Shown here: one piece after another, positions 9,498-51,964 of the stretch
Layout of the letters: the number at the start of each line of letters is the position of its first letter
How positions within the stretch are numbered: the stretch's first letter is position 1
Virus record (IMG/VR): IMGVR_UViG_3300039216_000106
Coordinates: 1 to 64,000 of that record
DNA length: 64,000 nucleotides
Source: a virus
Direction: 5' to 3' (one strand)
Made by a program: the position numbers and the translations under genes
The notes under the pieces: model-generated
Told to the model about the DNA's origin: nothing
Database searches by the model: none
Seen by the model: only the letters and a program-made list of their open reading frames with translations

Positions 9498-9529
9498 GGT
9501 GTCTTCCGCCTAAATTTTCCCTCGCAAAC

Positions 9530-9569: not shown

Positions 9570-9600
9570 ACGGGCGCACTTTCGTCCCCGTCGCCCGTGC
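9568..9600. other. perfect 9-bp inverted repeat (hairpin) flanking the moron control region
   Basis: GCACGGGCG (9568-9576) pairs with CGCCCGTGC (9592-9600) around a 15-nt loop. It overlaps the distal box copy. Confidence 0.3.
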
Positions 9601-9667
9601 CAAATCGGCTTTGTACAAGGTGTTCTATTGGCTTATGGTCAGGACACAATCTCTGGGATGATGCGCC

Positions 9668-38731: not shown

Positions 38732-39061
38732 ATGCGATCAATCCCCACCATTCTATTCCTCGCTATGTTCGCCATTGGTCCGGCCATGGCCTGGGACGCC
38801 TACGGCACGCTGCGGCTCAAGGCTGACACCACGGTCTGCTTCCGCACCCCGACCGAGGTTCAGACCGCGGCCGGATCGGTTGAACTCGGCAAGGATCAAT
38901 GCCTGACGGTGCGCGCCGATGCGCCGCCGCAACCGGTAACCACTGGATTTTCCGATGAATTTCTGGCGTCAATCGGGTTCCACCGCTGCGGCGACGGTCC
39001 CAGCGGCAATCTCTACTGCTACGCGCCGCCGGCCGCGCCCCGCCCAAAAGAAAAACCGTAA
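38732..39061 (+). CDS. secreted protein
   Basis: MRSIPTILFLAMFAIGPAMAWD signal peptide. The ATG at 38732 is preceded by GAGGA. 109 aa. Confidence 0.45.
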   Translation: MRSIPTILFLAMFAIGPAMAWDAYGTLRLKADTTVCFRTPTEVQTAAGSVELGKDQCLTVRADAPPQPVTTGFSDEFLASIGFHRCGDGPSGNLYCYAPPAAPRPKEKP

Positions 39062-39543
39062 TGTCGGTTTGGACCCAGGAACTCTGCGACGAAGCCAAGC
39101 GAATCTATGTCGTTGACGGTTATTCCGCGAGTGTCACGGCCAGGATCATCAACACAGCTCACGGCACCACTTTCAGCCGCAACGCTGTGATTGGGAAACT
39201 TGCGCGGCTCGGCATTCTCGGCACAATACCGGAAAGGTCCCGCACTTTCAACCGTTTGCACCGTCCAAAGCAGGTTAAAGACCGCCCGACCCAGCGCATC
39301 ACCTACAGCCCATCCGAGTTACGCGGCGTTACCGATCTTGAGCCCACCGGCCCTGTCCGGGATTTTCCGCCGCGCGGTGGTTGTCAGTTCATGACCGGCG
39401 AGCCCGGAGAACCTGACTGGCGCATGTGCGGCCGCCCCGGCTATCCATGGTGTCCAGAGCACCGTAAGATCGTCTTTCAGCCGCAGTCGAAACAGGCCAG
39501 TGTCAGTGCCGACCCTGCGCCGGCACAATCGGAAGCGGCGTAA
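39061..39543 (+). CDS. gcrA: GcrA-family cell-cycle regulator homologue
   Basis: N-terminal W..E....A..........SA...A..IN....TFSRNAVIGKLARLGI and the C-terminal CQFMTGEPGEPDWRMCGRPGYPWCPEHRK match GcrA architecture. Confidence 0.75.
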   Translation: MSVWTQELCDEAKRIYVVDGYSASVTARIINTAHGTTFSRNAVIGKLARLGILGTIPERSRTFNRLHRPKQVKDRPTQRITYSPSELRGVTDLEPTGPVRDFPPRGGCQFMTGEPGEPDWRMCGRPGYPWCPEHRKIVFQPQSKQASVSADPAPAQSEAA

Positions 39544-39553
39544 CGGGCACCAC

Positions 39554-40186
39554 ATGTCAGTCGCCACCGTTCACAAACGCCCAAGGCCGCCGGAATTTGA
39601 GCCCGGCACCGTTCCGCCCGATTTTATCCCGGCGCCAGACCTCGCCAATTGGGCTATGGCCTCGTTCGTGGTGGACGGCGCCCCACTCGAAAACCCAGAT
39701 CACCAGCACCTGAGAGACGCCATCATCGGTTGCCTTTGGGCGACTATTCCAAACAGCCGGCATATGGTCCAGGTCGTTGGTCAGGCCGAACGATCGCAAT
39801 TTCAAGGCGGCAAGTGGATCAAGGCCCGCCAAGAGCAGCAGATGCGTGACTGGTTTGGGGAGCTACCGGATTTTATCCTGACGTTCGACGCCGGTTATGC
39901 CTCGGTTTGCGACGACGGCAGCTTCTGCGCGCTGGTCGAACACGAATTGGCACATTGCGGCCAAGCGCTTGACAAATTTGGAGGCCCAAAGTTTACCCGT
40001 GACGGACAGCCCGTATATGTTCTAAAAGGGCACGATGTGGAAGAGTTTGTCTGCATCGTCCGTCGTTACGGTGCTGGCCGCGGCGCTGGAAAGACGCTAG
40101 ACCTTGTCCAAGCCGCCATGCAGAGACCAAGCGTTACAGCGGCAGCAATCACCGGAGCGTGCGGAACCTGCCGGACGAAATTCTAA
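39554..40186 (+). CDS. putative phage metallopeptidase-like protein (HExxH)
   Basis: 210 aa from the ATG at 39554. LVEHELAHC motif, upstream of the terminase genes. Confidence 0.5.
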   Translation: MSVATVHKRPRPPEFEPGTVPPDFIPAPDLANWAMASFVVDGAPLENPDHQHLRDAIIGCLWATIPNSRHMVQVVGQAERSQFQGGKWIKARQEQQMRDWFGELPDFILTFDAGYASVCDDGSFCALVEHELAHCGQALDKFGGPKFTRDGQPVYVLKGHDVEEFVCIVRRYGAGRGAGKTLDLVQAAMQRPSVTAAAITGACGTCRTKF

Positions 40187-40206
40187 GAAAATCAGAGGAA
40201 ATCAAT

Positions 40207-40578
40207 ATGCGAGGCGGCAAACGAACGGGCGCCGGACGAAAAAAGGGAGCAATTACAGCGGCTACGCGGCGCCGGAAGGAAATCATAGAAGAGGCGACAA
40301 ATGCCGGGATTACCCCCCTTGAGCTGTCGTTACGGCTGATGCGGGCGCTTTGGGCTAAGGCGATCAACCCCAAGGGTGAAATAATCAACGACGGCAAGGC
40401 GATGCAGGCGCACATTATCGCGAAAGACGTGGCGCCATTCGTACATCCGAAGCTGGCCACGATTGAAATGGGCGGCAAAGGTGGGGGCGCGATTGAAATG
40501 CACCACCAAGTCATCACCGCCGAGATGACGGCGAAGGAGGCGGCCGAAGCATATGCAGCCTCCTTGCACAAGAAGTAA
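40207..40578 (+). CDS. terS: terminase small subunit candidate
   Basis: MRGGKRTGAGRKKG basic N-terminus with GAGGAA upstream. It lies immediately upstream of, and overlaps, the large terminase gene. Confidence 0.5.
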   Translation: MRGGKRTGAGRKKGAITAATRRRKEIIEEATNAGITPLELSLRLMRALWAKAINPKGEIINDGKAMQAHIIAKDVAPFVHPKLATIEMGGKGGGAIEMHHQVITAEMTAKEAAEAYAASLHKK

Positions 40579-42304
40579 GGAAAACTGGCCGCCGGATTAC
40601 GTTGCGGTCTACGCTTGGCGGCAGCAACAGGTATTGCACCTGCGCGCCCACCCAGAGCTTATCGCGGGCGCGAAAGAATATTACCGAACGCGGCCGGCCG
40701 AATTCATCAACCACTGGTGCGACACCTACGACCCGCGCGCCGCAGGGTCAGATGTTCCGACGCGGGTGCCGTTTATCCTGTTCCCGCGCCAGGACGATCT
40801 AGTCGAATTTCTCTATGCCTGCCTCCGTGGCGAGGCGTCGGGGCTGATCGAGAAGTGCCGCGACATGGGCGCGACGTGGGATTGCTGCGGCTTCTCGGTG
40901 TGGCTGTGGCTGTTTTGGGAGGGCGCCGCGGTTGGCTGGGGAAGCCGCAAGGAAGAGCTGGTCGATAAGCTTGGCGACCCGAAGTCGATTTTCGACAAAA
41001 TCCGCACGCTGGTGTTCAACCTGCCGGACTTTTTTCTGCCGAAGGGGTTCAACCCGCGAATTCATAGTGGGTTCATGAAGCTGATCAACCCGGAAAATGG
41101 GGCGACGATCACGGGCGAGGCGGGCGACAATATCGGACGTGGTGGGCGCACGCTCTGTACCTTCAAAGATGAGTCTGCACATTACGAGCATCCCGAAGCG
41201 ATTGAGGCGGCGCTGTCCGAAAACACCCGCGTTCAGATTGATCTTTCATCGGTTAACGGCGTCGGTAACGTGTTCCACCGGCGCCGGGAAAATGGCGTCG
41301 AGTGGGTACGTGGCGCGCCGGTGGTTAAGGATCGGGCCAACGTGTTCGTGATGGACTGGCGCGACCACCCGACCAAGACGAAAGAGTGGTACGACACCCG
41401 CAAATCCAAATTCGAGAGCGAGGGGCTGGGCCACATTTTCGCCCAAGAGGTGGACCGGAACTACGCTGCAGCCGTCGCCGGCATCATCATCAAATCGGAC
41501 TGGGTCAAGGCCGCGATCGACGCGCATATCACGCTCGGTATTCCGGAAACCGGGGCATGGGGTGCCGCGCTGGACGTGGCCGATGACGTCGAGGGCGGTG
41601 GTAACGACCGTAACGCGCTGATCAAGCGCCGCGGTATTGTGCTCAAAGCCGCCGACGAATGGGGCGAGATGGACACCGGCAAGACGGCCAGGCGCGCCGC
41701 CTCGTTTTGCGATGGGCATGGCCAGATCGCGGTCCAGTACGATTGCATCGGGGTAGGCGCCGGGGTCAAGGCTGAGGTCAACCGGCTGATCGAAGACAAG
41801 TTGATGCCGCCGTACATCCGGTTTATCCCTTGGAACGCCGCGGCCAGCCCGCAACACCCCAAGCTGCGCGTGATCAAGCAGGAAGACGACAGCGAGGACA
41901 AGGATAGCCCGACCAACGAGGATTTTTACGCCAACCTGAAGGCGCAGGGCTGGTGGGAGCTGCGGTTCCGGTTCTACCGCACCTATCAGGCGGTGATGGC
42001 CGGCGCCCGCTACGACCCGCGCCGCAACCGCGTGATCGGCCCGCGCATCAATTTCGACCCGAACGACCTAATTTCGATCGACGGCACAATCCCGGTGATA
42101 CGCCAGATCGAAAAGGAACTCAGCCAGCCCACGGCCGGGCAGTCCACCAAGATGAAATTGCTGGTCAACAAGGCGCCGGACGGCACCAGATCGCCGAACC
42201 TGGGCGACGCGATCATGATGGCGTATTTCCCGATCGATATTGCAATCCCAGACTGGCTTAAGCCCAAAGGCCCCCCTCCCGTGGTGTCGATATATGGGAG
42301 GTGA
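40553..42304 (+). CDS. terL: terminase large subunit
   Basis: 583 aa. FINHWCDTYDPR...VPFILFPRQDDLVEFL...IEKCRDMGATW ATPase region and a C-terminal nuclease-sized domain. Confidence 0.8.
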   Translation: MQPPCTRSKENWPPDYVAVYAWRQQQVLHLRAHPELIAGAKEYYRTRPAEFINHWCDTYDPRAAGSDVPTRVPFILFPRQDDLVEFLYACLRGEASGLIEKCRDMGATWDCCGFSVWLWLFWEGAAVGWGSRKEELVDKLGDPKSIFDKIRTLVFNLPDFFLPKGFNPRIHSGFMKLINPENGATITGEAGDNIGRGGRTLCTFKDESAHYEHPEAIEAALSENTRVQIDLSSVNGVGNVFHRRRENGVEWVRGAPVVKDRANVFVMDWRDHPTKTKEWYDTRKSKFESEGLGHIFAQEVDRNYAAAVAGIIIKSDWVKAAIDAHITLGIPETGAWGAALDVADDVEGGGNDRNALIKRRGIVLKAADEWGEMDTGKTARRAASFCDGHGQIAVQYDCIGVGAGVKAEVNRLIEDKLMPPYIRFIPWNAAASPQHPKLRVIKQEDDSEDKDSPTNEDFYANLKAQGWWELRFRFYRTYQAVMAGARYDPRRNRVIGPRINFDPNDLISIDGTIPVIRQIEKELSQPTAGQSTKMKLLVNKAPDGTRSPNLGDAIMMAYFPIDIAIPDWLKPKGPPPVVSIYGR

Positions 42305-42396
42305 CTTGTAACGCAATTTAATGTTTCAGACATGTAATCAGTCTTGCGTTACCGGCCCGGCGGGCCTAGTCTCTTGTCATCAAACGGGAGACGGCT

Positions 42397-42582
42397 ATGG
42401 CCATGAAAATCGACATCACGTTGGAAACCACGGACGATTGGACGGTCTTTTCCGAAGCCAACAGTGACGCTCTTCTTGAGATTTACCCCAACCTCGACGC
42501 GGCCATGAAAGCGGCCTGCGACGGCGGTATTCAGATGGGCGGTGGCGCGGCGCCGGAGTTTTTCATCCACTTCGCAGGCTGA
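42397..42582 (+). CDS. hypothetical protein
   Basis: 61-aa ORF, first of the accessory island. Confidence 0.4.
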   Translation: MAMKIDITLETTDDWTVFSEANSDALLEIYPNLDAAMKAACDGGIQMGGGAAPEFFIHFAG

Positions 42583-42584
42583 TC

Positions 42585-42770
42585 ATGGACCGCAAGCAAA
42601 TCGACCAATGGCTTAATCCGCACGTTCTGAACGTATGCCTTGCGGCTCACAGTCGCGAAGAAAACGACCTAAGCCTTGCGATTGAAATGCTGTACCAGCG
42701 GGTAGAATTGCTCGTTAGGCAGGCAGTCCGCGAAGCCCCCACCAACCAAACAAAACGAGGGCAGCCGTGA
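42585..42770 (+). CDS. hypothetical protein
   Basis: 61-aa ORF lying 2 nt after the previous stop. Confidence 0.4.
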   Translation: MDRKQIDQWLNPHVLNVCLAAHSREENDLSLAIEMLYQRVELLVRQAVREAPTNQTKRGQP

Positions 42771-42997
42771 TGGGCATTGACCCGGACGAGAAATCCGCAT
42801 TCAAGGCTTATGTCATAGATCGCGCCCGTGATCCTGGTGAGACGCCAAATGCGCGCCAGCGGGCAATGATGGCCTGCCTCGTAATCCCGGCGCCGATCCA
42901 GAAGTGGATGATCGAAGCAGGCGCAATAGAGCCGCTTCTTGATTCCATCGAAAAAACCATAATCGCGGCGGAAAAGTACGCTCGCGAGAATAGATAG
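42767..42997 (+). CDS. hypothetical protein
   Basis: 76-aa ORF with an ATGA overlap. Confidence 0.4.
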   Translation: MMGIDPDEKSAFKAYVIDRARDPGETPNARQRAMMACLVIPAPIQKWMIEAGAIEPLLDSIEKTIIAAEKYARENR

Positions 42998-43011
42998 GGA
43001 CGGGCTTAGAC

Positions 43012-43170
43012 ATGCCTGTTTACGATTGCGGAGACCCAGAATGTACCGAATGCCAAAAAGCGTTCGGGCCTAATCGCTCCAAAGCTATCGCCAATTTCAA
43101 GGCGCGGGAACGTGAGTACGATCGGATAGCGCGCGAAAATCGGGAACTCGCCAACAATGACGCCCGCTGA
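43012..43170 (+). CDS. possible 52-aa Cys-containing protein
   Basis: Hand-translated as MPVYDCGDPECTECQKAFGPNRSKAIANFKARERE.... Its end overlaps the next start. Confidence 0.35.
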   Translation: MPVYDCGDPECTECQKAFGPNRSKAIANFKAREREYDRIARENRELANNDAR

Positions 43171-43369
43171 CTTCAAATCCGGCCGGAATGCGCTTGGCCT
43201 GTCCATTGCCGAACTGGCCGTGGCCCTCGATACTGACCCGCGCACCATCCGCAAATGGGAGGCTCTGCACGGTAACAGCGCGCGGCCACCGAACCCGATT
43301 GCGTGCCGGGTGCTCGGTTGGATGCTGGCCGGTTTTCGGCCGCCTGAATGGCCGGAAGGCAAGCGGTGA
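43157..43369 (+). CDS. HTH (XRE/antitoxin-like) protein
   Basis: FKSGRNALGLSIAELAVALDTDPRTIRKWEA. Confidence 0.5.
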   Translation: MTPADFKSGRNALGLSIAELAVALDTDPRTIRKWEALHGNSARPPNPIACRVLGWMLAGFRPPEWPEGKR

Positions 43370-43496
43370 TCAACATTACCGCCGCATTAAATCGCGTTAC
43401 ATAGCGGCGAGATCGCTTGCCGGAATTACGGACGTGCGTTACAAGACTGCATACCGCTTGAAACGGTTCCGGGCGAGAGGTCAAGAGGGCCAGAAG

Positions 43497-43796
43497 ATGT
43501 CGAAGAAATCCACAGTCACCACCGAGACCATCCAGTGCGTCCGTGAAATTCCGGGCGAGTACGTTCACGCTGGCACGGTCTACAAGGTCACGCGGAACGA
43601 ATCCAATCGTGGCATGAAGGCCACCGCGTATTTCCACAACATCCTGCGTGGCAGCGGAACGTCGATGCCGGAATGGCAGGTTCGCCGCGCCATCGCAAAC
43701 GGGTCGCTGAAGGTTTTCACCGCGGCTGATCCGGCAGTGCTGGTTGGCATGGTCGAAGACGGCATGGCGCTCTACGCAAACGTGGCGCTGGGGTAA
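43497..43796 (+). CDS. hypothetical protein
   Basis: 99 aa from the ATG at 43497. The upstream part of the tracked ORF is non-coding-like and holds two GCGTTACA boxes. Confidence 0.4.
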   Translation: MSKKSTVTTETIQCVREIPGEYVHAGTVYKVTRNESNRGMKATAYFHNILRGSGTSMPEWQVRRAIANGSLKVFTAADPAVLVGMVEDGMALYANVALG

Positions 43797-43800
43797 GACG

Positions 43801-43992
43801 ATGACGGCGTTTCGTGGCAAGGCGGCCAGAGAAGCAAGGTGGCTAAAGCGGGCGGAATACATCCACCGCATATCGCTTTCGCTTGCGGAAGAAATTGAGC
43901 GCGCTACAGGAGAACGCTCGATAGAAACTTCTCTCGCCTATGGGATCAATCTCGACGCGCGCCATTTGATAACGACGCTCGGCGGAAAATAA
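43801..43992 (+). CDS. hypothetical protein
   Basis: 63 aa from the ATG at 43801. Confidence 0.35.
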   Translation: MTAFRGKAAREARWLKRAEYIHRISLSLAEEIERATGERSIETSLAYGINLDARHLITTLGGK

Positions 43993-44004
43993 GGAGACAC
44001 CAAT

Positions 44005-44229
44005 ATGTCGAAATCAGTCAAACCCGCAATGTACACTTACAACGGCCACAAAATCACCGTGCGCGGCACGGAAGATTTGCCGGAGGTTGCGGTATTCGAT
44101 GCGCGCTTTCCAAAAAATGATGCGCTCTACAAAACTACGTCGCTTGATTTGGCGATGCGGTGGGTCAATGCTTATCTGGCTGGCGAGCAGTGGGCCGTTT
44201 CCGAAAAGCTCGAACCTGCGACCGCCTGA
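44005..44229 (+). CDS. hypothetical protein
   Basis: 74-aa ORF. Confidence 0.4.
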   Translation: MSKSVKPAMYTYNGHKITVRGTEDLPEVAVFDARFPKNDALYKTTSLDLAMRWVNAYLAGEQWAVSEKLEPATA

Positions 44230-44325
44230 CCCTGCAGTCTGAGGGCGAGTAGCGCCGCCTTCTAATGTGTGATCAGATTGTACGGCGCGCCTCAGCCACA
44301 GATAGGGGCAGGAAAGACCAAAGAC

Positions 44326-44715
44326 ATGACCAACCACCCGAACAGAAAGAAGACCGCGGCCCCGCTGCACTGGCGGCAGGGCGACGTACTGCTTGTCGCC
44401 ACGGATCGGATTCCGGCCGACGCCGCGCCGGTCGGACGCGACGAACACAACCGCTTGGTCCTCGCCAACGGCGAAGTCACCGGCCACGCCCACGTCTTCC
44501 GCGGCAAGGGCATCTGCGGTTTCACCAAACTCGACAACAAGGACATCGAATACCTTCTGGTCGAGACCGGTGGCGGTTCCGGCGCCACGCTCAAGCACGA
44601 GTTGGTCAGCGGCGCCAAGGCCGACCATGATCCGCAGCAAATTCCGGACGGCAAATATCTGCTTGGCCAGCAGGTCGAGTATACGCCGGCAGAACTTATC
44701 CGTGCGAGCGACTAA
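44326..44715 (+). CDS. hypothetical beta-rich protein (GEVTGHAH motif)
   Basis: 129 aa from the ATG at 44326, ending 1 nt before the repeat-protein start. Confidence 0.45.
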   Translation: MTNHPNRKKTAAPLHWRQGDVLLVATDRIPADAAPVGRDEHNRLVLANGEVTGHAHVFRGKGICGFTKLDNKDIEYLLVETGGGSGATLKHELVSGAKADHDPQQIPDGKYLLGQQVEYTPAELIRASD

Positions 44716-44716
44716 C

Positions 44717-46009
44717 ATGGCACAAAAACTCGAACTCACAGACGAGCGAAAAGCCATCATCACTGCTTCGCTCGAAGAGTGGATGGCAGCTGGACTGTCC
44801 ACTGCGCCGGCTGATTTTGGTGCGGCAGAGGAAGCCATTGCCGTCCTCTATAGCCACATCGGCCGTAAGCGGCCCCATTTTGTTCGGCTCAGTTCTCCGC
44901 TCGGTGCAGAACTTTACATAAACTTGCTTTGTCAAACTTGGCCCAAGGTTGATTTGAAGTCGCTCAGGGACCAGCTCAGGGACCAGCTCGGGGGCCAGCT
45001 CTGGGACCAGCTCGGGGACCAGCTCGGGGACCAGCTCGGGGACCAGCTCGGGGGCCAGCTCGGGGACCAGCTCGGGGGCCAGCTCAGGGACCAGCTCGGG
45101 GACCAGCTCTGGGACCAGCTCGGGGGCCAGCTCGGGGACCAGCTCTGGGACCAGCTCGGGGGCCAGCTCGGGGGCCAGCTCAGGGACCAGCTCGGGGACC
45201 AGCTCTGGGACCAGCTCGGGGGCCAGCTCGGGGACCAGCTCTGGGACCAGCTCAGGGACCAGCTCGGGGGCCAGCTCAGGGACCAGCTCAGGGACCAGAA
45301 ACTGAACTATATGGGAACGTGGTTCTGGGGCCAATGGGATTATTTATGGGCATGGCTGGATGGTGGTCGCCGGATTGGCGCTCATTACGATGACAAGCAG
45401 AACGCCATGCTTGATGCACACTGCACACTAGTCAAATCGTGCGGCTGGTTTTATCCGTTCGATGATTTCTGCATCATCACGGATCGACCGGAAATTATCG
45501 CGCGTGATGATCGTGGGAGGCCGCACTCTGACAATGGCCCTGCACTACGTTATCGTGACGGCTACAGTCTGTACGCGTCACATGGCGTGCGGGTCCCGAC
45601 CGATCTTGGCGTTGACCACTCCAAGATCACGGTAGCGCGGATCGACGCGGAACAGAATGCCGAGGTCCGTCGAGTTTTGATCGGCTGGTTCGGCATGGAC
45701 CGGTATTTGCGGGAATCTGGCGCTACGGTTGTGCATGAGGACTTTGACGCGCTGGGCAATCCGCGGCGCCTGTTCCGGCGTGAACAGCCGGACGACGAAG
45801 CGATTGTCGCCGTTGAGGTGACGGATTCGACACCGGTTCCGGATGGTGAGGCCAGAAAGTATGTGATGCGCGTTGATCCGACCAAGTATGACGGCCGCGC
45901 TGGCCGGGAGTGCCACGCTGCGATTGCATCGACGTGGCGGCGCAAGGATGATCTGTCCAAGATGATGTTTGCACGACCCGAGGATTATGCACCGGTAGGC
46001 GAGACGTGA
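44717..46009 (+). CDS. tetrapeptide-repeat protein: N-terminal helical region, 28 x L-x-[D/G]-Q repeats, W-rich C-terminal globular domain
   Basis: 430 aa from the ATG at 44717. The repeat block LRDQLRDQLGGQLWDQLGDQ... is followed by GTWFWGQWDYLWAWLDGG...DNGPALRYRDGYSLYASHGVRVP. Confidence 0.65.
   Translation: MAQKLELTDERKAIITASLEEWMAAGLSTAPADFGAAEEAIAVLYSHIGRKRPHFVRLSSPLGAELYINLLCQTWPKVDLKSLRDQLRDQLGGQLWDQLGDQLGDQLGDQLGGQLGDQLGGQLRDQLGDQLWDQLGGQLGDQLWDQLGGQLGGQLRDQLGDQLWDQLGGQLGDQLWDQLRDQLGGQLRDQLRDQKLNYMGTWFWGQWDYLWAWLDGGRRIGAHYDDKQNAMLDAHCTLVKSCGWFYPFDDFCIITDRPEIIARDDRGRPHSDNGPALRYRDGYSLYASHGVRVPTDLGVDHSKITVARIDAEQNAEVRRVLIGWFGMDRYLRESGATVVHEDFDALGNPRRLFRREQPDDEAIVAVEVTDSTPVPDGEARKYVMRVDPTKYDGRAGRECHAAIASTWRRKDDLSKMMFARPEDYAPVGET
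44963..45298 (+). repeat. 28 tandem copies of a 12-bp unit CTC-NGG-GRC-CAG, in frame
   Basis: Counted directly: 336 nt equals 28 x 12. Units 11-18 and 19-26 show a higher-order 8-unit (96-bp) pattern. Confidence 0.95.
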
Positions 46010-46245
46010 CCATGACACTCAGCGCAGAAGACTTTACCGCGATTGGTGTTCTGCTCGCCGGCCCAGACTGGAAACTACCGGTATCGAAAATGCTCGGCAT
46101 CAACGAGCGGACGGTGCGGCGCTGGGCGAGCGGCGAGGCTGCGGTGCCGTCTGGCGTTGTTCCGCAACTTGAGGAACTTTGCCGGTCTCACGCGACCGAT
46201 CTGTTGATGTCGGCGCACCGGCTCAAGGCAATAAAGGTGAAGTGA
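46006..46245 (+). CDS. HTH-like small protein
   Basis: VSKMLGINERTVRRWASGEAAVP. ATGA-type overlap with the repeat-protein stop. Confidence 0.45.
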   Translation: MTMTLSAEDFTAIGVLLAGPDWKLPVSKMLGINERTVRRWASGEAAVPSGVVPQLEELCRSHATDLLMSAHRLKAIKVK

Positions 46246-46299
46246 TGGCAAAAACACACATCGTCGTTGATACCGCGAACCGAAAACAAAGGATTGACC

Positions 46300-46713
46300 A
46301 TGGGCTGCGAAGAAAACACGGCGCACGGCGAGAGACCGGAGAATGACCCGGCTGACATACGCAGTGATGTTGCTGAAGGCTTGGCGTTTATTGACGGGCT
46401 CTCATCTGATGAGCTGCGCGCCTTCCTTGGCCTGTTCGCAGGCGCCAGATTTCCATGGACCAGTTTTAACGGCGAAGCGCCCTTTATCGGTAAGGCGGAA
46501 TGTGAGTGGGTTCCTGACTGGCGTGACTTTTACGGCAAGAGGTTGAAAGGTGCCGGGTTGTTTCGCTTTAAGGAAGGATCACCACACCCAGCGCTCGGTA
46601 TGTCACCAGGGTCGACGTTTGTCGATATCGACTGCGGGCCTACCGCTCTGGGGTATGATGTGCGAGAAGCTTGGTGGAACAGATTAAACAAAGAAGTAAA
46701 GGGTAAAATATGA
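46300..46713 (+). CDS. hypothetical protein
   Basis: The ATG at 46300 is preceded by AAGGA; the tracked TTG at 46267 is less likely. Confidence 0.4.
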   Translation: MGCEENTAHGERPENDPADIRSDVAEGLAFIDGLSSDELRAFLGLFAGARFPWTSFNGEAPFIGKAECEWVPDWRDFYGKRLKGAGLFRFKEGSPHPALGMSPGSTFVDIDCGPTALGYDVREAWWNRLNKEVKGKI

Positions 46714-46895
46714 GCGATGTTCCAACCATCACCACGTTCATGGGCAAAAACGTCGAGGACATGACGCGAGATGAGTTGATCGACGCCGTGAAGTGTTTGG
46801 GCAATATGGTTCAGTCGATGAGGCGCTGCCAAGAAATTCAGCGTGAGATTGATGAACATCGGCGCCAGCGCTCGGCCGAATATGTGGGTTTGTAA
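46710..46895 (+). CDS. hypothetical protein
   Basis: 61-aa ORF with an ATGA overlap. Confidence 0.4.
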   Translation: MSDVPTITTFMGKNVEDMTRDELIDAVKCLGNMVQSMRRCQEIQREIDEHRRQRSAEYVGL

Positions 46896-46952
46896 CTCCC
46901 GCCCAACCGGTTTACATTCTGCATTCCGCGTTACAACCATCGGGCGCCCCGC

Positions 46953-48680
46953 ATGTTCAAAAAAATTGCCGCCACCGTTCCGGCCTATGACTGGGCGCCA
47001 GATGGCTCCCGCTTCCGCAAATTGGATCTGTTTGACCGGTTGCTGGACGGCACTTTTTACGACGGGCTGAAGCACTCGTTTTACGATGAGACCGAGGGCA
47101 TGGGCCAAGCCGCGGTCCCGATCCCGATCGATCAGCGCCGCCCGTCAACACAATACCGCCTTCCCCGCATGGTGGCGCGCTGGTCCAGCCGCAAGCTGTT
47201 TTCGGGTCGCCACGTCCCCCGCATCAAGCACGATGACCCCAAGGCTAAGGCACGGGTGGAGGCCCTCATCGTCTCGACCGGGCTTTACCGCAAGATGATG
47301 GAAATTGCGTTTCGCGGCTCTGTGGGCTCGGTGGCGGCGACGTTCAGGGTCGAGACCAACCCCGCGGCGGACGGCAAAAACGAGGATGTGCGCTGCGGCG
47401 TGAACGTGTGGAAGGCCAAATGGTGCTGGCCCAGCTTTGACACGATGGGCGAGTTGTCCGCGTTACGCATTGCCTACCTGACGTGGCCCGCCGCGTTCGC
47501 CGCGATGAACCTCCCCGACCTCAAGCCGATGGAACCGAACCGGCAATACTGGTTCATCCGCGATTACCTGACCAACTCGGAAGTGACGTTTCAGCCGGTT
47601 CTGAAAGAGGACTGGGACCCCTGTAACGGGTTCAAAGAGGGCGCGACCGAGCACGAATTGACGCCGTGGGACACCCACACGCACGATTTTGGCTTTGTGC
47701 CGGGGCATTGGTTCAAGAATTTGGCCGGCGGCGAAGACCCGGACGGGGCCTGCACATGGGAAGATGCAATCCCGGATTCGATCGAACTTGACTATGTTTT
47801 CAGCCAGGTCGCGCGCGGCACCCGTTACAACTGTGCTCCGCAGCCGGTCATCATCGGAAACCTGATGAACCCCGGTGACATGACGCGCGGGCCTGCCGTG
47901 GCGCTGTTCCTGGAGCCTGGGCGAAAGGACCCTGAAGGTAACGTAATCAACGCGGGCGACGCCAAGCTGCTCGAAATGACCGGCAAGGGGATCGAGGCCG
48001 GATTGATGGTGGTGGACAAGCTCCACGACCACGCGCTCGAGCAAATCAGCGCGGCCCGCAAGGACCCTCAGCGCATGAAGGGTGTGTTGTCCGGCCGCGG
48101 CATGGAATTCCTGGACCAGGACAGCCACGACCTCGTTATGGAACTGCGCACCGCCTACGGCGACGAAGGCTTGCTGCCGCTGCTCCGCAAGATGTGCGTT
48201 GCGGTCTACGACGGCGAGATTGACGCGGCCCGTATCGCGTTACAGTGGCCGCGTCTCAACCAGCCGGAAGCGGCCGACATATCGTCAATGGCGGACGGTA
48301 TCAGCAAGTTGCTCAATCCGCTCCAAGCCGCCTATGCCCCGGCCCGGCCCGCGTCCAGCGAAAAAGGCCCGGACGGCACCACGACGCCGGTCCCGGCCAG
48401 CGAAGAGCAAAAGCCGCCGGAAGACTTCATGTTGGTCACGCCGGACCAAGCCAAGCTGTTCGTCTCGACCTATCTCGACCTGACAACGCTGGAACTGGAC
48501 GGCGCCGCCGTGGCGGAAGTCGAGGAACAGTCCACCGCCGACCTGCCGGGCGAGCCGATTGAGACCGCGCCGGCCGCGCTTGGGCCGGAAGACCAAGAAG
48601 TAATCGAGGGCGAAGGCGAGGCGCAGACCGATCCTGTCGCGGACGCCATGCAGAATGTCATCAATCGGATGGGGATGTAG
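46953..48680 (+). CDS. portal protein (putative)
   Basis: 575 aa with an acidic C-terminal tail. It is the only portal-sized ORF between terminase and capsid genes. The call rests on size and context, not motif. Confidence 0.6.
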   Translation: MFKKIAATVPAYDWAPDGSRFRKLDLFDRLLDGTFYDGLKHSFYDETEGMGQAAVPIPIDQRRPSTQYRLPRMVARWSSRKLFSGRHVPRIKHDDPKAKARVEALIVSTGLYRKMMEIAFRGSVGSVAATFRVETNPAADGKNEDVRCGVNVWKAKWCWPSFDTMGELSALRIAYLTWPAAFAAMNLPDLKPMEPNRQYWFIRDYLTNSEVTFQPVLKEDWDPCNGFKEGATEHELTPWDTHTHDFGFVPGHWFKNLAGGEDPDGACTWEDAIPDSIELDYVFSQVARGTRYNCAPQPVIIGNLMNPGDMTRGPAVALFLEPGRKDPEGNVINAGDAKLLEMTGKGIEAGLMVVDKLHDHALEQISAARKDPQRMKGVLSGRGMEFLDQDSHDLVMELRTAYGDEGLLPLLRKMCVAVYDGEIDAARIALQWPRLNQPEAADISSMADGISKLLNPLQAAYAPARPASSEKGPDGTTTPVPASEEQKPPEDFMLVTPDQAKLFVSTYLDLTTLELDGAAVAEVEEQSTADLPGEPIETAPAALGPEDQEVIEGEGEAQTDPVADAMQNVINRMGM

Positions 48681-48681
48681 G

Positions 48682-48891
48682 ATGAACGGTTGGCAACCGA
48701 TTGAGACCGCGCCAGATGGGTATACCGATGGCAAGTTTCACTACGTCCTGTTCCTTGGCGTCAGCGTTTCTGGCGCGTTCAGCCACCCCGTGGTCGTAAA
48801 TGGCTGGATGGATAGCGACCGCAAACCAGTGCAATGGTATCACTATCGCCTGAAAATTACCCACTGGATGCCAATGCCGGAACTGCCATGA
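48682..48891 (+). CDS. DUF551-like protein
   Basis: MNGWQPIETAPDG....ITHWMPMPELP is the typical DUF551 start and end. Confidence 0.55.
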   Translation: MNGWQPIETAPDGYTDGKFHYVLFLGVSVSGAFSHPVVVNGWMDSDRKPVQWYHYRLKITHWMPMPELP

Positions 48892-49520
48892 TTGCGGCGT
48901 TGTTTGTCGAGACGAACGGCTGCTACTTCGGACTTGAAGGCGTGGACCCATGGGACGAAACGCGAGACGCGCGGCTCTATCCCGGCCCGCACCCCGTCGT
49001 CGCGCATCCGCCCTGCCAGCGATGGGGGAGGTTCTGGCATGGCAGCACGCGCAAACCGCATCAATTCAAACTTGGCGATGACGGCGGCTGCTTTGCCTCT
49101 GCGCTGGCTTCTGTGCGGCACTGGGGTGGCGTGCTTGAGCATCCGGCAGACAGCCGGACCTGGTCGGCGTTCAACCTCAACGCCCCGCCGCGCGAAGGCG
49201 GGTGGATCGCCGCCGATATGTCAGGCGGCTGGACGTGCTACGTTGAGCAGGGATTTTACGGTCACCCTTCACGCAAGCCAACTTGGCTGTACGCCCATGG
49301 CGTCGATCTGCCGGCGCTTCACTGGGGCCGCGGCAATCAGCGCTTGCCCGAATGGATGATTGAGCGTTACGGTTACGAAAAGGCGCGGCGCATCGGCGTT
49401 GTTGCTATGATCGGCGGTAAGGACAAGACGAAGATCCGCAACGCCACGCCGCCGCAGTTCCGCGATCTTTTATTGTCGATTGCGCGGACCGCGGCCGTCG
49501 CACAAACCAAGGCAGCCTGA
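48888..49520 (+). CDS. C5-methyltransferase-like protein with PPCQ and E-x-P motifs but no recognisable AdoMet motif I
   Basis: VAHPPCQRWGRF and GGVLEHPADS resemble motifs IV and VI. The N-terminus ALFVETNGCYFG lacks FxGxG. Confidence 0.55.
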   Translation: MIAALFVETNGCYFGLEGVDPWDETRDARLYPGPHPVVAHPPCQRWGRFWHGSTRKPHQFKLGDDGGCFASALASVRHWGGVLEHPADSRTWSAFNLNAPPREGGWIAADMSGGWTCYVEQGFYGHPSRKPTWLYAHGVDLPALHWGRGNQRLPEWMIERYGYEKARRIGVVAMIGGKDKTKIRNATPPQFRDLLLSIARTAAVAQTKAA

Positions 49521-49524
49521 CCCC

Positions 49525-49944
49525 ATGCGTGACACCATCATCCGCCGCATCCGCCTCCCCCAGCCCAAGATGGGCGGCAAGATGTTCCTTATCCAGGAGC
49601 CTGGGCTTTACGTATTCGAGGAAGGCCCGGCGACGCTTATCACGCTGGCCGTAACGCACGCCGGGTCAGGGACCATCCTTGGTTACGACGGCGTGCCGGA
49701 CGAAAACGGGCGGTTCCCGGACGAGGAAATGCAGGAATGGATGCCGGACGGCAGCCGCAACCCGGACTACGACACCCGCAACGGCCGGGCGATCTACCGC
49801 GCCACACCTGCAGTAATGGGCTCTTGGATGGCGTCAGGCGGCTGTTTTCACGGTCTGGTCATCCATGCGGACGGCGGCGGCCATTCGGTCTGCCCGTTCG
49901 CCACTGTAGTCTGGAACGCATACAAGGCGAGGGAGAAGACATGA
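49525..49944 (+). CDS. hypothetical protein
   Basis: 139 aa from the ATG at 49525. It may be a distant paralogue of the 52290-52643 product. Confidence 0.4.
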   Translation: MRDTIIRRIRLPQPKMGGKMFLIQEPGLYVFEEGPATLITLAVTHAGSGTILGYDGVPDENGRFPDEEMQEWMPDGSRNPDYDTRNGRAIYRATPAVMGSWMASGGCFHGLVIHADGGGHSVCPFATVVWNAYKAREKT

Positions 49945-50834
49945 GCAAGTCGATTTGCATCTATCACGGCGGCTGCGATGACGGGTTTGCCGCGGCATGG
50001 GCGCTCCGCACATCAATGGTGCCTGACACATTCGAGTTTCACCCCGGCGTCTACGGTAACGCTCCTCCTGACGTTTCTGATCGGCACGTTGTTCTTGTCG
50101 ATTTCAGCTACAAGCGCCCAATTCTGACCGAAATGGCGAAGGCAGCAAAGTCAATTCTCATTCTCGACCACCACAAGACGGCGGCCGAAGACCTCGCCGG
50201 AATGCCGCACCCCGGCACCCGCGACGAATGGTGTTTCAGTAAGGCGCCGGACGGCGTCGCGGCGATCTTCGATATGACCCGAAGCGGCTCCGGTATCGCG
50301 TGGGATTTCTTTCACCCGTATCAGGCGCGCCCTGCGTTCATCAATTATGTCGAGGACCGCGACCTTTGGCGCAAGGCGCTTCCGAACGGCGACGAATTTA
50401 CCATCGCTCTGCGGTCACATCCACAAGACTTTGAGACGTGGGACAGGCTTGTCGCCGCAGGCCCAGCGCCCCTGATCGAAGAAGGCCGCGCAATTCAGCG
50501 CTATTATCGGCTTCGCGTCGAGGAACTGAAGCAAAGCTCCTATCTCGCAAAGATTGCTTGGGGCCATGACACCAGAGACCTTACGCGGTCCACCATCGCC
50601 ATCGCGAACGCGCCATATTTTGCGGCGAGTGAGGTTGCGGGCGAACTATGCGCCGTCGATGGTGCCGAGTTTGGGGCAAGCTATTTCGAGGTACGGCCTG
50701 GACAATGGCAATATTCGCTACGATCCCGTGGTGATTTCGATGTTTCGGCGGTCGCCAAGTGCTTCGGTGGCGGCGGGCACAAGAACGCAAGCGGTTTCAC
50801 CATGCCATGGCCCGTTCACGAGAAATTGCCGTGA
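49941..50834 (+). CDS. DHH/DHHA1-family phosphoesterase
   Basis: IYHGGCDDG (motif I region), VLVDFS, ILDHHKT (DHH) and the C-terminal GGGHKNASGF (DHHA1 GGGH). ATGA overlap. Confidence 0.7.
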   Translation: MSKSICIYHGGCDDGFAAAWALRTSMVPDTFEFHPGVYGNAPPDVSDRHVVLVDFSYKRPILTEMAKAAKSILILDHHKTAAEDLAGMPHPGTRDEWCFSKAPDGVAAIFDMTRSGSGIAWDFFHPYQARPAFINYVEDRDLWRKALPNGDEFTIALRSHPQDFETWDRLVAAGPAPLIEEGRAIQRYYRLRVEELKQSSYLAKIAWGHDTRDLTRSTIAIANAPYFAASEVAGELCAVDGAEFGASYFEVRPGQWQYSLRSRGDFDVSAVAKCFGGGGHKNASGFTMPWPVHEKLP

Positions 50835-51061
50835 AGCAGCACCGCACCACCGGCCGCCCCGTGAACAACTCCGTCAGGCACAGCCGGTGCCAGAAGATCA
50901 CACGTTACGCCATCGCGACCGCTTTTGCGATTGCACACACCGAACAGTTGCCGGAAACTCTACCCTGCGCATGGTGTGACGGCGATTTCCCGTTGGACGA
51001 ATTTAGGTGGGTAAACGGCGAGAAGATCGGCGACACCAAACCCAAAGAGGAAGTGGCATGA
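50831..51061 (+). CDS. hypothetical protein
   Basis: 76 aa from the GTG at 50831 (GTGA overlap). Confidence 0.35.
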   Translation: MKQHRTTGRPVNNSVRHSRCQKITRYAIATAFAIAHTEQLPETLPCAWCDGDFPLDEFRWVNGEKIGDTKPKEEVA

Positions 51062-51351
51062 CCGGTCCCAAAGTCGTCACGCTCAGCGGCGAGCCCATTG
51101 AACACGCAATTGAGGGCAACACACCGCTGGCCACGCTGAAGCGGCTCGTCGAGAAGGTCGAAAGCGGCGATATTGTGCTCAAAACCGTGCTGATTTTGGG
51201 GGAAAGTCCAAGTCCAAAAGACCCAAGTTGCGTTTTCACGAAGGCATGGGACAGCGATATCACGGTGGAGCGGATGATTACGATCATGGAAATGACGAAA
51301 TTCGACCTAATCGCCAAGTCGATGGGCATTATCCGGGAGGACGACGCATGA
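51058..51351 (+). CDS. hypothetical protein
   Basis: 97 aa with an ATGA overlap. Confidence 0.4.
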   Translation: MTGPKVVTLSGEPIEHAIEGNTPLATLKRLVEKVESGDIVLKTVLILGESPSPKDPSCVFTKAWDSDITVERMITIMEMTKFDLIAKSMGIIREDDA

Positions 51352-51953
51352 TCAAGACGCGCTACGAGATGACTGAATTGACCACGTACAAAATTGGTGG
51401 AGCATCAGCCGACGAAGCGCTTGTGGTTGTGGATGGCCAGCAAATATTGACCCAGTGCCTTGAGGCCGATACTGCGGCCGGCACCGCCTTGGTCTACGAG
51501 ACCGACGAACACGGCCATTTCGTCCGCGACGGCGTGAACCGCAAGACCAAGATGATCCACAGCGCCAGCCTCCGCATCATGCGCCGGATCGATCCGAAGC
51601 CCAACACAGATCCCAGCGTTGAGGCGATCATCGCGGCGCAGAAAGCGCATTACCGGCGCCGGGCCGACGAAGCGGTTGGCGCTGAGGGCAAATTGTGGGC
51701 CAAATTGATGCTTGGCCTCTGCGACCCGCTGGTGCGATGGGTCAATAGCCATGCCGTCCGCGCCGCCAAGGGCGACGTGCTCCGCGCCGTGACATGTGCT
51801 GCAGCCTGCCTGGCGGCCCAGGCGATCAAAAATACCGGCGACACCGACGACATTGCCCAGCGAAAATACGTCGAGACGCTGTTTACCGACGAATTGTCGC
51901 GGCTTTTGAAGCAGCAAGTCGCGGGCCAGACCATCACCCGCACGGATGCGTGA
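51348..51953 (+). CDS. hypothetical protein
   Basis: 201 aa with an ATGA overlap. Confidence 0.4.
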   Translation: MIKTRYEMTELTTYKIGGASADEALVVVDGQQILTQCLEADTAAGTALVYETDEHGHFVRDGVNRKTKMIHSASLRIMRRIDPKPNTDPSVEAIIAAQKAHYRRRADEAVGAEGKLWAKLMLGLCDPLVRWVNSHAVRAAKGDVLRAVTCAAACLAAQAIKNTGDTDDIAQRKYVETLFTDELSRLLKQQVAGQTITRTDA

Positions 51954-51964
51954 AGGAGAAAGAC

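Follow-up and report, generated by a model that had tools for sequence, protein, structure and literature searches.

A family-wide array of 12-bp coding repeats within a phage DUF6745 gene

A phage gene carrying a long run of almost identical tetrapeptides raises the question of whether such a run is a passive spacer of changing length or a part of the protein that is under selection. The locus considered here lies in a stretch of 64,000 nucleotides, called the window (IMG/VR record IMGVR_UViG_3300039216_000106, positions 1-64,000), and all coordinates are positions in it. Tandem Repeats Finder placed an array at 44962-45298, with a period of 12, 28.1 copies, 90% matches, no indels and a score of 534, and found no other array of this kind within the 64-kb window. 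Read directly, the array comprises exactly 28 in-frame units on the + strand at 44963-45298 (residues 83-194), with the pattern CTC-NGG-GRC-CAG, which encodes L-[R/G/W]-[D/G]-Q. Both methods thus bear out the 28 x 12-bp perfect-phase array proposed by an earlier sequence-only reading. Four types of unit are present: LGGQ (CTCGGGGGCCAG) and LGDQ (CTCGGGGACCAG), each found eight times, LRDQ (CTCAGGGACCAG), found seven times, and LWDQ (CTCTGGGACCAG), found five times. Variation is confined to nucleotide 4 (A, G or T) and nucleotide 8 (A or G) of the unit, the remaining ten positions being invariant. A two-unit pattern gave 27 matches in the window and none in dinucleotide-preserving shuffles. The codons of the array are uniform (CTC 28/28, CAG 28/28, AGG 7/7, GGG 16/16), while elsewhere in the phage CTC makes up 21% of Leu codons, AGG 6% of Arg codons and GGG 16% of Gly codons.

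A 96-bp periodicity relating units 11-18 to units 19-26 had also been proposed. This is mostly borne out: units 11-16 recur as units 19-24 and unit 18 recurs as unit 26, while unit 17 is LGGQ and unit 25 is LRDQ; an exact direct repeat at this offset, on the + strand within 45067-45253, covers 91 nt (45067-45157 and 45163-45253). Since no higher-order periodicity was found across the arrays of the family, we regard this repeat as a local duplication. A role of the array in RNA structure was dropped, as the sequence folds worse than its shuffles (z = +4.1), and a scan for promoters and terminators showed nothing notable. The list of open reading frames holds an antisense frame with PELV/PELA repeats (44696-45334, - strand). 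We did not treat it as a gene, because it spans the array only and is a by-product of a stop-free repeat; in all homologues the array is in frame with the + strand flanking domains.

The gene that bears the array (44717-46009, + strand) encodes 430 residues, as had been claimed; the extent agrees with the list of open reading frames, and homologues share the same start methionine. Its product consists of an N-terminal domain, the 28 tetrapeptide repeats and a C-terminal domain. The suggestion that the C-terminal part (residues 195-430, 45299-46006) belongs to a DUF-type family was upheld by profile search, in which residues 223-396 (45383-45904) matched Pfam PF20530 (DUF6745) with 153.7 bits and an E-value of 5.3e-45, above the curated gathering score of 27. 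The N-terminal domain (residues 1-82, 44717-44962) is conserved in the family and gave no Pfam match at E<=0.1. The architecture typical of the family, a conserved N-terminal region of about 80 residues followed by a variable insert and the C-domain, is that of the window gene. In an alignment of 101 sequences (A1) the near-invariant residues are T8, Y45, P53, S60 and P61 in the N-terminal part and L269, H270, G290, N314, E316 and R318 in the C-terminal part; in domain numbering, the invariant residues of the C-domain are R74, H76, N120, E122, R124 and R125.

AF2 modelled both flanking domains with pLDDT above 90. The elements predicted for the N-domain are helices at residues 9-26, 34-47 and 61-74 and a strand at 54-58 (pLDDT 92-98). 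On the array it placed two putative helices, 80-127 and 129-192, with a break at residue 128 and a low pLDDT of 53-72; the pTM of the model was 0.71. If these helices formed a hairpin that packs the N-domain with the C-domain, the number of repeats would alter the length of the arm and not the spacing between the two domains.

Structural and sequence comparisons brought no relative of known fold. A Foldseek search of the PDB with the full model had a best E-value of 0.34. The same search of BFVD returned three matches at E<=0.001, namely two named DUF6745 proteins and one uncharacterised fragment. Profile searches of PDB sequences gave matches to the low-complexity repeat only with A1, and none with the C-domain alignment (A2). 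Both flanking domains and the upstream partner protein described below are thus without known fold. No meaningful match was obtained with the PADLOC defence and anti-defence models, none at all in NCBIfam, and the ten long DUF6745 proteins inspected for domain fusions contained DUF6745 only. An exact look-up of the 430-aa protein found no identical entry on record, and full-text literature searches with the name DUF6745 and with the repeat strings found no paper.

Directly upstream lies a partner gene (44326-44715, + strand), whose stop is 1 nt before the ATG of the repeat gene. It encodes a 129-aa protein predicted to be all-beta (AF2 pLDDT 90), with the invariant elements RQGD, GExTGHxH, H91 and H101 in its alignment (A3); E50, H54 and H56 are invariant as well. 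Clustering recovered this gene in 34 of 44 loci, and it stands directly upstream on the same strand at 65 of 96 DUF6745 genes. The protein corresponds to phrog_27831, where a function is not assigned, and it had no match in Pfam, in the PDB (profile A3) or by Foldseek (best E 0.23). Downstream, a small gene at 46006-46245 (+ strand) has weak helix-turn-helix matches in Pfam and corresponds to phrog_12690/3626; the stop of the repeat gene and the start of this one share bases (GTGA), so that both belong to the same operon. On exact look-up the 79-aa version of its product was without record, and a 77-aa version was matched.

The phage context that had been claimed holds, and its description as an accessory island holds in part. 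In the window the gene is one of a group of small ORFs that follow the large-terminase gene (TerL). Its place in other phages is the early region or that of replication, where it comes after a cro-like switch or has replication genes as neighbours. Megablast of 40000-52000 against cultured phages and plasmids gave no match.

The array is not peculiar to this phage. We found 518 homologues of the same architecture with an array at the same place, the number of LxxQ units ranging from 0 to 52 with a median of 19, and a search with the C-domain only reached 7,913 clusters (50% identity) at E<=1e-3. Among 80 viral loci picked via the C-domain motif alone, irrespective of any array, about 70 (some 85%) have an array of period 4 in the corresponding position, in flavours that include LxxQ, VxxQ, VxxS, VxxA and TxxA. 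The window's 12-nt unit was matched exactly in 77 stretches of IMG/VR and in 34 from bacterial genome contigs, the latter labelled Alphaproteobacteria, Actinomycetota, Planctomycetota and others. In the IMG/VR set, arrays of at least five units with enough flank lie almost all in a gene with the N-domain and DUF6745, an exception being one of 12 units with no C-domain match (L065). Matches were found in 9 of 50,697 cultured-phage records, and array-bearing homologues are also present in isolate genomes (Brevundimonas olei, Arthrobacter) and in the deposited prophage prophiGD102-1. Some members have no array or hold unrelated long inserts at its place (P0123, of 961 aa, P0070, P0089 and P0097). 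The array is thus a hallmark of the whole DUF6745 family, which the sequence-only reading had overlooked, as it had the upstream partner gene.

We then assessed how the units vary, using 64 non-redundant arrays with 1,638 units. As much as 92% of the within-array variation falls on codon positions 1 and 2 of residues 2-3, and 8% on third positions; the two nucleotides that vary most are a first and a second codon base in 60 of the 64. Mean heterozygosity is 0.65 at nucleotide 4, where the maximum for three alleles is 0.667, and 0.48 at nucleotide 8, as against 0.017 at third positions. The three states of residue 2 are near-equal in frequency in nearly every array. The six letters formed by R/G/W and D/G are used about equally often, and across 2,149 units the residue at position 2 shows no statistical dependence on that at position 3. 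Among 73 arrays with Arg, 38 use AGG only, 30 CGG only and 5 both, and the synonymous A/C heterozygosity at nucleotide 4 is 0.020, so that the letters are copied and not re-mutated. Other flavours use different synonymous codons (GTC/GTG/GTT, AGC/TCG/TCC, GAC/GAT, CAG/CAA), which led us to reject a universal DNA-level constraint on the unit. Homogenised synonymous sites next to diverse residues point to concerted evolution with diversity kept by selection, and not to hypermutation. A passive spacer is therefore too weak a description of this array, since variation sits at two non-synonymous nucleotides.

Slipped-strand mispairing had been put forward as the source of length changes. The units follow one another in a nearly random order, in which identical neighbours are slightly under-represented, and block-wise unequal recombination together with selection fits this order better than slippage of single units.

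The idea that the array behaves as a VNTR, to be judged by repeat number in related phages, is supported by the comparison of close relatives, in which near-identical phage and prophage copies differ in their arrays. In three groups whose flanks are 97-99.9% identical, the arrays have 34 and 17 units (L003, L004), 18, 61 and at least 20 units (L060, L079, L009), and 17 and at least 11 units (L173, L054). Near-identical phages differ strongly in the order of letters as well as in length. The first of these differences is a single clean indel of 17 units, whose junctions share too little sequence for a collapse at k=119. All observed length variants keep the frame, the unit being 12 bp; a contingency locus switching by phase-variable frameshifts was rejected, since the unit is divisible by three.

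For the window phage itself, two further contigs bear on the array. One (L198) shares 99.96% identity with 40326-45060 and breaks off within the array, its two mismatches in 4,735 nt both being at nucleotide 4 or 8 of array units; the other (L199) matches 45065-46523 at 100% identity, its first base already lying within the array. Together they reproduce the first 8 units, apart from two changed letters, and, without any change, the last 19.5. As they carry parts of the array, the array of the window is real. The count of 28 is the figure of one assembly, no independent contig spanning the whole array, and in this same-phage comparison letter differences alone are visible. Scans for exact flanks found no further copies of the window phage in metagenome_contigs (two scans) or viral_contigs. 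In general, copy numbers come mostly from short-read assemblies, which are often broken inside arrays, and in 35 of the 80 viral loci the open reading frame is cut off by the end of the contig, either inside the array or upstream of it. The arrays are thus frequent contig breakpoints in viral metagenomes, and short-read copy numbers should not be trusted.

A published functional analogue exists, which the sequence-only reading had missed. Gene 54 of mycobacteriophage Tweety, with which Che8 gp57 and PMC gp51 are grouped, contains a 12-bp unit whose third positions are invariant, the variation falling on first and second positions. Three related phages have 48, 26 and 15 copies, and the authors guessed that structures of this type "may be more widespread" (Pham et al. 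2007, PMC2884959). According to a passage in Hatfull (2022, PMC9262239) citing Dedrick et al. 2017, gp54 acts in counter-defence, and defence-escape mutants change the number of repeats. Here, we re-derived the unit statistics from the Tweety sequence. Like the window gene, gp54 has unique N- and C-terminal regions with an in-frame tetrapeptide array placed between them, with two invariant and two variable residues per unit; like the DUF6745 arrays, it keeps third positions invariant and varies at first and second ones, among them an alternation of G and W (GGG/TGG), and its copy number differs among close relatives. A further point of resemblance is that gp54 is a non-essential early-region gene of temperate phages. 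The two differ in the unit, AA[G/W/Q][S/Y] in gp54 and L[R/G/W][D/G]Q in the window, and the sizes of the domains are reversed (140 aa N-terminal and 40 aa C-terminal in gp54). Homology was rejected: gp54 had no Pfam match, and hhalign of A1 against it gave a probability of 0.1. HMMs for the N-domain, the C-domain and the partner protein had no match at the Tweety locus, nor does a homologue of the partner gene lie nearby. No sequence relationship goes beyond the repeat principle, so the functional analogy is architectural only, and the window gene is an analogue of gp54 and not a member by descent. Counter-defence is experimental for gp54, while for the DUF6745 gene it would follow by analogy.

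Other systems share single traits with the array. Variable region 2 of bbp36 in the Bordetella phages BMP-1/BPP-1 is built of a 24-bp unit (a 19-bp repeat and a 5-bp spacer), and it resembles the window gene in being an in-frame tandem element in a non-essential gene, with 9-20 copies between isolates (PMC2884959). It differs in its 24-bp unit and in belonging to an unrelated protein. Pentapeptide-repeat proteins (PF00805; Qnr, MfpA) have a similarly very short period, a conserved aliphatic residue with small or polar neighbours and a D/N/G-rich composition. It had been stated that the array is neither a pentapeptide repeat nor a standard coiled coil, and we agree on both points. The units follow one another at a period of exactly 4, without indels, no pentapeptide family appeared in the Pfam scan at E<=1, and AF2 built no beta-helix of the pentapeptide type for the array; Leu recurs every 4.0 residues over 112 residues, against about 3.5 in a heptad. 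An exact 4.0 period with many Gly is, in itself, a poor fit to an alpha-helical coiled coil. TAL effector units, with 33-35 residues, a solved helical fold and a DNA code of one repeat for one base, resemble the array in their concerted evolution, with near-identical DNA and two adjacent diverse residues, and differ in size from its unit of 4 residues. The NANP repeats of the Plasmodium circumsporozoite protein are also in-frame tetrapeptides whose number and minor-variant composition differ between strains; unlike the array, they belong to a eukaryotic surface antigen under immune selection and are of unrelated sequence. Variable proteins of diversity-generating retroelements (DGRs), such as Mtd of a Bordetella phage, likewise show diversity at set codon positions without stop codons. 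A DGR depends on a template repeat, a reverse transcriptase and mutagenesis specific to adenine, and nothing of the three was found for the window array.

Several rival explanations were considered. The array could be a neutral, low-complexity spacer, a selfishly expanding minisatellite at a permissive loop, whose length and composition have no function. Members without an array or with unrelated inserts there, the low AF2 confidence and the near-random order of units are all in keeping with this. However, neutrality predicts equal polymorphism at synonymous and at tolerated non-synonymous sites, in place of the excess at nucleotides 4 and 8 over third positions and the balance of the three residue-2 states, and duplication alone should enrich identical neighbours, which are slightly depleted. 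With arrays of many flavours in about 85% of the sampled viral members as a further objection, we consider a neutral spacer unlikely. An assembly artefact could be suspected from the many frames lost at contig ends, from the two contigs that stop or start inside the array, and from the 91-nt exact internal repeat, which could collapse or expand. As the source of the existence of the array it is already refuted, since those same two contigs reproduce most of the units and hundreds of homologues, including isolate genomes and prophiGD102-1, have in-frame arrays; given also the clean 17-unit indel, whose junctions are too short for collapse at k=119, mis-assembly of short reads as the origin of the array or its length is very improbable.

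The remaining two alternatives concern the variable residues. Residues 2 and 3 might act as TALE-like di-residues in a modular recognition code, each unit reading one element of a periodic ligand such as a nucleic acid, a glycan or a repetitive protein. Near-identical DNA repeats with variation limited to two adjacent residues, six letters in near-equal and well-mixed use, and independence of the two positions speak for such a code, but four residues are a very small recognition module, no nucleic-acid- or glycan-binding fold was detected by Foldseek in the PDB or BFVD, and no structural model offers a regular binding surface. Moreover, letter order and length differ in near-identical phages, which would mean constant retargeting. 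We therefore regard a recognition code as quite improbable. A dedicated, DGR-like mechanism diversifying the two variable nucleotides would account for their fixed positions and for the NGG and GRC design, which cannot make stop codons. It is contradicted by the window, which holds no second (template) copy of the repeat, by the absence of a reverse transcriptase among the ORFs screened, and by the codons: the A at nucleotide 11 never varies, A/C synonymy at nucleotide 4 is as rare as third-position change (0.020 and 0.017), and AGG and CGG are near-exclusive within arrays. We rejected this DGR or hotspot hypothesis and grant it hardly any probability.

Thus, the observation of the array is confirmed and its first interpretation is partly supported. 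The reading which we favour, with moderate confidence, is that of a genuine coding minisatellite, recombined and selected, which forms the central segment of DUF6745 proteins, is variable in length and composition, and may serve a phage conflict protein as an arm or linker tunable by mutation. The protein plan is an N-domain of about 80 residues, a (hydrophobic-x-x-polar)n segment and a C-domain of about 235 residues. Whole 12-bp units are gained, lost and reshuffled via unequal recombination or slippage; this turnover homogenises 10 of the 12 nucleotides, while selection keeps residues 2 and 3 mixed (R/G/W x D/G). The existence of the array, the spread of its design through the family, selection on the variable residues and the differences between near-identical phages are established, and the tuning, the role in counter-defence and the fold of the array are inferences. 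By analogy with gp54, the segment may set the geometry or a binding surface of a non-essential protein engaged in phage-host or phage-prophage conflict, and the repeat protein probably works with the small protein encoded directly upstream. A broader proposal, which we put forward tentatively and consider doubtful, is that DUF6745, often with its His-rich beta partner, represents a very large, multi-phylum class of recombination-driven, non-DGR tunable adaptors, in which the number and order of the six letters, or of their equivalents in other flavours, would be a heritable and quickly re-assorted trait that decides which defence of the host or of a prophage, or which other target, is neutralised. 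If so, Tweety gp54 would be one case of a general strategy.

Until now gp54 has seemed a curiosity of a few mycobacteriophages, and the same design is now seen in an unrelated and very large family. It carries a clean and quantifiable signature of homogenised synonymous sites, residue-2 states in near-maximal balance and codon-exclusive letters. If the analogy with gp54 holds, these genes would be markers of conflicts between phages and defences and would supply a protein module that is tunable by nature.

The repeat under study is a real coding minisatellite. Tandem Repeats Finder (TRF) places it at 44962-45298 with a period of 12, 28.1 copies, 90% matches and no indels, and direct reading of 44963-45298 gives 28 units (a short-read copy number), in frame within the 430-aa ORF 44717-46009, whose start has the same position in its homologues. 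Both the 28 x 12-bp in-frame array and the gene described in the sequence-only reading were thus borne out. Only four unit types occur, namely CTCGGGGGCCAG (encoding LGGQ, eight copies), CTCGGGGACCAG (LGDQ, eight), CTCAGGGACCAG (LRDQ, seven) and CTCTGGGACCAG (LWDQ, five), and nucleotides 4 (A/G/T) and 8 (A/G) are the sole variable bases of the window units. A two-unit pattern matched 27 times in the window versus 0 times in dinucleotide-preserving shuffles, and a pattern scan found no copy of the unit elsewhere within the window. Within the array, a stretch of 91 nt is duplicated locally and exactly (45067-45157 = 45163-45253). The 96-bp periodicity claimed earlier for units 11-18 and 19-26 holds in part: units 11-16 equal units 19-24 and unit 18 equals unit 26, whereas units 17 and 25 are not the same. 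Codons within the array are uniform (CTC 28/28, CAG 28/28, AGG 7/7, GGG 16/16, GAC 20/20). Elsewhere in the phage the corresponding shares are 21% for CTC among Leu codons, 6% for AGG among Arg codons and 16% for GGG among Gly codons, so this uniformity reflects unit copying and not codon bias.

The opposite strand carries an open frame of 212 aa (44696-45334, minus strand) with PELV/PELA repeats, in which each unit has its nucleotide 4 at a third codon position, where the changes are synonymous; we judge this frame to be a by-product of the stop-free repeat. TRF reported three other tandem repeats in the window, all weak (scores 56-72): 24 bp x 2.7 at 10146-10209, 15 bp x 3.2 at 22669-22716 and 22 bp x 2.2 at 41100-41148.

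The C-terminal domain, which had been related only vaguely to a DUF-type family, was assigned by Pfam profile search to DUF6745 (residues 223-396; 153.7 bits against a cut-off of 27), while NCBIfam and PADLOC models gave no match to the protein. AlphaFold2, run with an alignment of 101 sequences, gave a model with mean pLDDT 83.9 and pTM 0.71, in which the N-domain (1-74) and C-domain (210-430) are confident, with pLDDT mostly >90. For the array the model shows a pair of long helices (80-127 and 129-192; pLDDT 53-72), which we do not trust because a sequence whose hydrophobic period is exactly 4.0, and in which up to half of the positions are Gly, fits an alpha-helical coiled coil poorly; the earlier remark that the array is not a standard coiled coil agrees with this. 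Foldseek found no fold relative in the PDB (best E 0.34), and in a viral library at E<=0.001 it found three proteins only, two named DUF6745 and one uncharacterised fragment. Profile searches of the PDB with the family alignments returned low-complexity matches or none, and ten long family members checked contained no informative domain fusions.

A search with the whole protein returned 518 homologues; almost all of the 120 listed have the layout of N-domain, LxxQ array and DUF6745, with 0-52 LxxQ units each (median 19). Since such a search is biased by the repeat, the family was resampled via the C-domain only, which at E<=1e-3 matched 7,913 clusters (50% identity). From IMG/VR, 239 relatives were recovered with a motif of the C-domain, and at about 70 of the 80 loci retained from these a period-4 array lies directly upstream of the C-domain, in flavours that include L-x-x-Q, V-x-x-Q, V-x-x-S, V-x-x-A, T-x-x-A, L-x-x-N and L-x-S-S. 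The exact DNA unit of the window is present in 77 IMG/VR stretches and, among bacterial genomes, in 34 stretches from contigs with Alphaproteobacteria, Actinomycetota, Planctomycetota and others in their titles. Within the 77 IMG/VR stretches, arrays of at least five units with enough flank almost all lie inside an N-domain/DUF6745 ORF, an exception being the 12-unit array of locus L065, which has no C-domain match. The period-4 array is a hallmark of the DUF6745 family, and the design is family-wide.

Two loci deserve separate mention. L041 (IMGVR_UViG_3300033075_000427) has two 26-unit arrays on the minus strand, 1.6 kb apart (7738-8049 and 9327-9638), in two ORFs of equal length (516 aa). 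Either the entire DUF6745 gene is duplicated in tandem here, or the assembly has introduced the second copy. At L128 (IMGVR_UViG_3300020037_006335) the array upstream of the C-domain match reads PRSG/QRSG in the C-domain frame, and may be frameshifted or pseudogenised, or of a different flavour.

Across 64 non-redundant arrays (1,638 units) from the C-domain-only sample, 92% of within-array nucleotide variation falls at codon positions 1 and 2 and 8% at position 3; in 60 of the 64, the two most variable nucleotides are one first and one second codon base of residues 2-3. Synonymous codons differ from array to array (GTC/GTG/GTT, AGC/TCG/TCC, GAC/GAT, CAG/CAA), so a universal DNA-level constraint is absent, and the internal homogenisation of each array is concerted evolution. 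In 113 non-redundant arrays of the window's flavour (2,369 units), nucleotide 4 is G in 39%, T in 27.5%, A in 20% and C in 13.5% of units, residue 2 is Gly (39%), Arg (33.5%) or Trp (27.5%), and nucleotide 8 is A (51%) or G (47%). Mean heterozygosity at nucleotide 4 reaches 0.65 (three-allele maximum 0.667) versus 0.017 at third positions. A and C at nucleotide 4 are synonymous because both encode Arg, and this choice has a heterozygosity of 0.020: 38 of 73 arrays use AGG only, 30 CGG only and 5 both. Such exclusivity means that mutation is not concentrated at nucleotide 4; the letters are passed on by copying, and it is the mixture of amino acids that is maintained. DGR-like hypermutation, to which we give virtually no credence, was rejected on this AGG/CGG control, and neither a template copy in the window nor, among the ORFs screened, a reverse transcriptase was found.

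Over 2,149 units, the identity of residue 2 is statistically independent of that of residue 3. Unit order is near random, with identical neighbours slightly depleted (z -2.3 for whole units, -3.4 for residue 2), which is the opposite of the legacy expected from simple one-unit slippage alone. Concerted evolution is combined with selection-maintained heterogeneity at residues 2-3, and for an array so maintained a passive spacer is too weak a notion. We regard a neutral spacer as unlikely and a TALE-like recognition code, in which the letters would be read, as quite improbable.

Near-identical phages differ in unit number and order, which supports the earlier idea of a length-variable repeat. 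Loci L003 and L004, with DNA flanks 98.5-99.6% identical, carry 34 and 17 units, separated by one clean 17-unit indel, and their proteins (P0044/P0046) are near-identical apart from the array, with 287/291 in the C-terminal alignment. Among L060, L079 and L009 (flanks 97-99.8%) there are 18, 61 and at least 20 units in differing orders. L173 and L054 (flanks ~99.9%; 17 versus at least 11 units), L071 and L043 (~99.75%) and L064 and L062 (~99.9%) have array ends in common and unlike interiors. Turnover of number and order is rapid. That the array itself is an assembly artefact is very improbable: two independent contigs each carry part of it. L198, an ENA contig of the window's own phage, matches with 99.96% identity across 4,735 nt, has just two mismatches, at unit 6 nucleotide 8 and unit 8 nucleotide 4, and terminates within the array; L199, a JGI contig, begins within it and is 100% identical to 45065-46523. 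At 35 of 80 viral loci the reading frame is cut off by the end of the contig, either before it reaches the array or inside it. The arrays certainly exist, but short-read copy numbers, including the window's 28, are provisional.

IMG/VR viral contigs very often start or stop inside arrays (L082-L161, L005-L081; for instance L007 with L042, L011 with L021, L050 with L051), and array sequence stands at both ends of some contigs that are 30-80 kb long. Such arrays are systematic assembly breakpoints in viral metagenomes and probably also false 'terminal repeats'.

The window is a tailed-phage genome in which PHROG searches identified tail sheath, baseplate, tail fibre, RecT, exonuclease, helicase, DNA methyltransferases, a replication protein, the major head protein, the large terminase (40553-42304) and, amid structural genes, a DHH/DHHA1 phosphoesterase (49737-50834, plus strand; phrog_4771, E 1.4e-80). 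Just upstream of the terminase, a GcrA cell-cycle-regulator homologue (39061-39543, plus strand; Pfam E 8.6e-14), which suggests an alphaproteobacterial host, overlaps the start of a 'putative phage metallopeptidase' ORF (39500-40186, plus strand; Pfam E 3.7e-30), called transposase by PHROG. Two large plus-strand ORFs of the structural region, 46953-48680 (575 aa) and 60808-62391 (527 aa), had no Pfam or PHROG match; the former occupies the expected portal gene slot, past the terminase and small-gene block.

The repeat gene lies in this small-ORF block downstream of the terminase, and the start of a small helix-turn-helix gene overlaps its stop. In other phages and prophages its homologue occupies the early region, after a cro-like switch or beside recombination/replication genes (L001; Brevundimonas olei prophage L002; M. 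abscessus prophiGD102-1 gene 38). The location is accessory, as first proposed. Its ATG is 1 nt past the stop of a 129-aa ORF (44326-44715, plus strand; phrog_27831), whose family is a frequent companion of DUF6745 genes: 65 of 96 such genes have a member directly upstream on the same strand, and clustering places one upstream in 34 of 44 loci. Residues invariant in the partner alignment (RQGD, GExTGHxH, H91, H101, Q116, P121, D129) suggest a possible metal site. The partner's AlphaFold2 model is confident and all-beta (pLDDT 90); no relatives were found in Pfam, PDB sequences or by Foldseek.

A full-text search found no paper on DUF6745 or these repeat strings. The closest parallel is gp54 of mycobacteriophage Tweety, a non-essential early gene with a 12-bp unit in which third codon positions are invariant and two residues (Gly/Trp/Gln and Ser/Tyr) vary through their first and second codon bases; the unit is present in 48 copies in Tweety, 26 in Che8 and 15 in PMC (Pham et al. 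2007, PMC2884959). We re-derived and confirmed its unit statistics. Pham et al. concluded 'selection for variation', guessed that such structures are possibly widespread, and also cited VR2 of Bordetella phage BMP-1 (PMC2884959). According to Hatfull 2022 (PMC9262239), citing Dedrick et al. 2017, Tweety mutants escaping the (p)ppGpp-synthetase-like Phrann gp29/gp30 defence map to gene 54 and have gained or lost repeats; the model proposed there is that the way in which the N- and C-terminal regions are juxtaposed tunes the protein so that it locks the defence complex. Membership of gp54 in DUF6745 was ruled out: it has no Pfam match, hhalign against the 101-sequence alignment gave a probability of 0.1, and HMMs of the N-domain, C-domain and partner did not match the Tweety locus. 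The window gene is therefore an architectural analogue and not a homologue.

By this analogy, the array would serve as an arm or linker, tunable by mutation, in a phage protein that may take part in conflict with functions of the host or of a prophage. We hold the evolutionary part of this account with high confidence, lean slightly towards the account as a whole, and propose a counter-defence function only tentatively. The window gene shares with Tweety gp54 the tunable tetrapeptide-repeat kind but belongs to a different and far larger family, in which the population-genetic signature is unusually clear.
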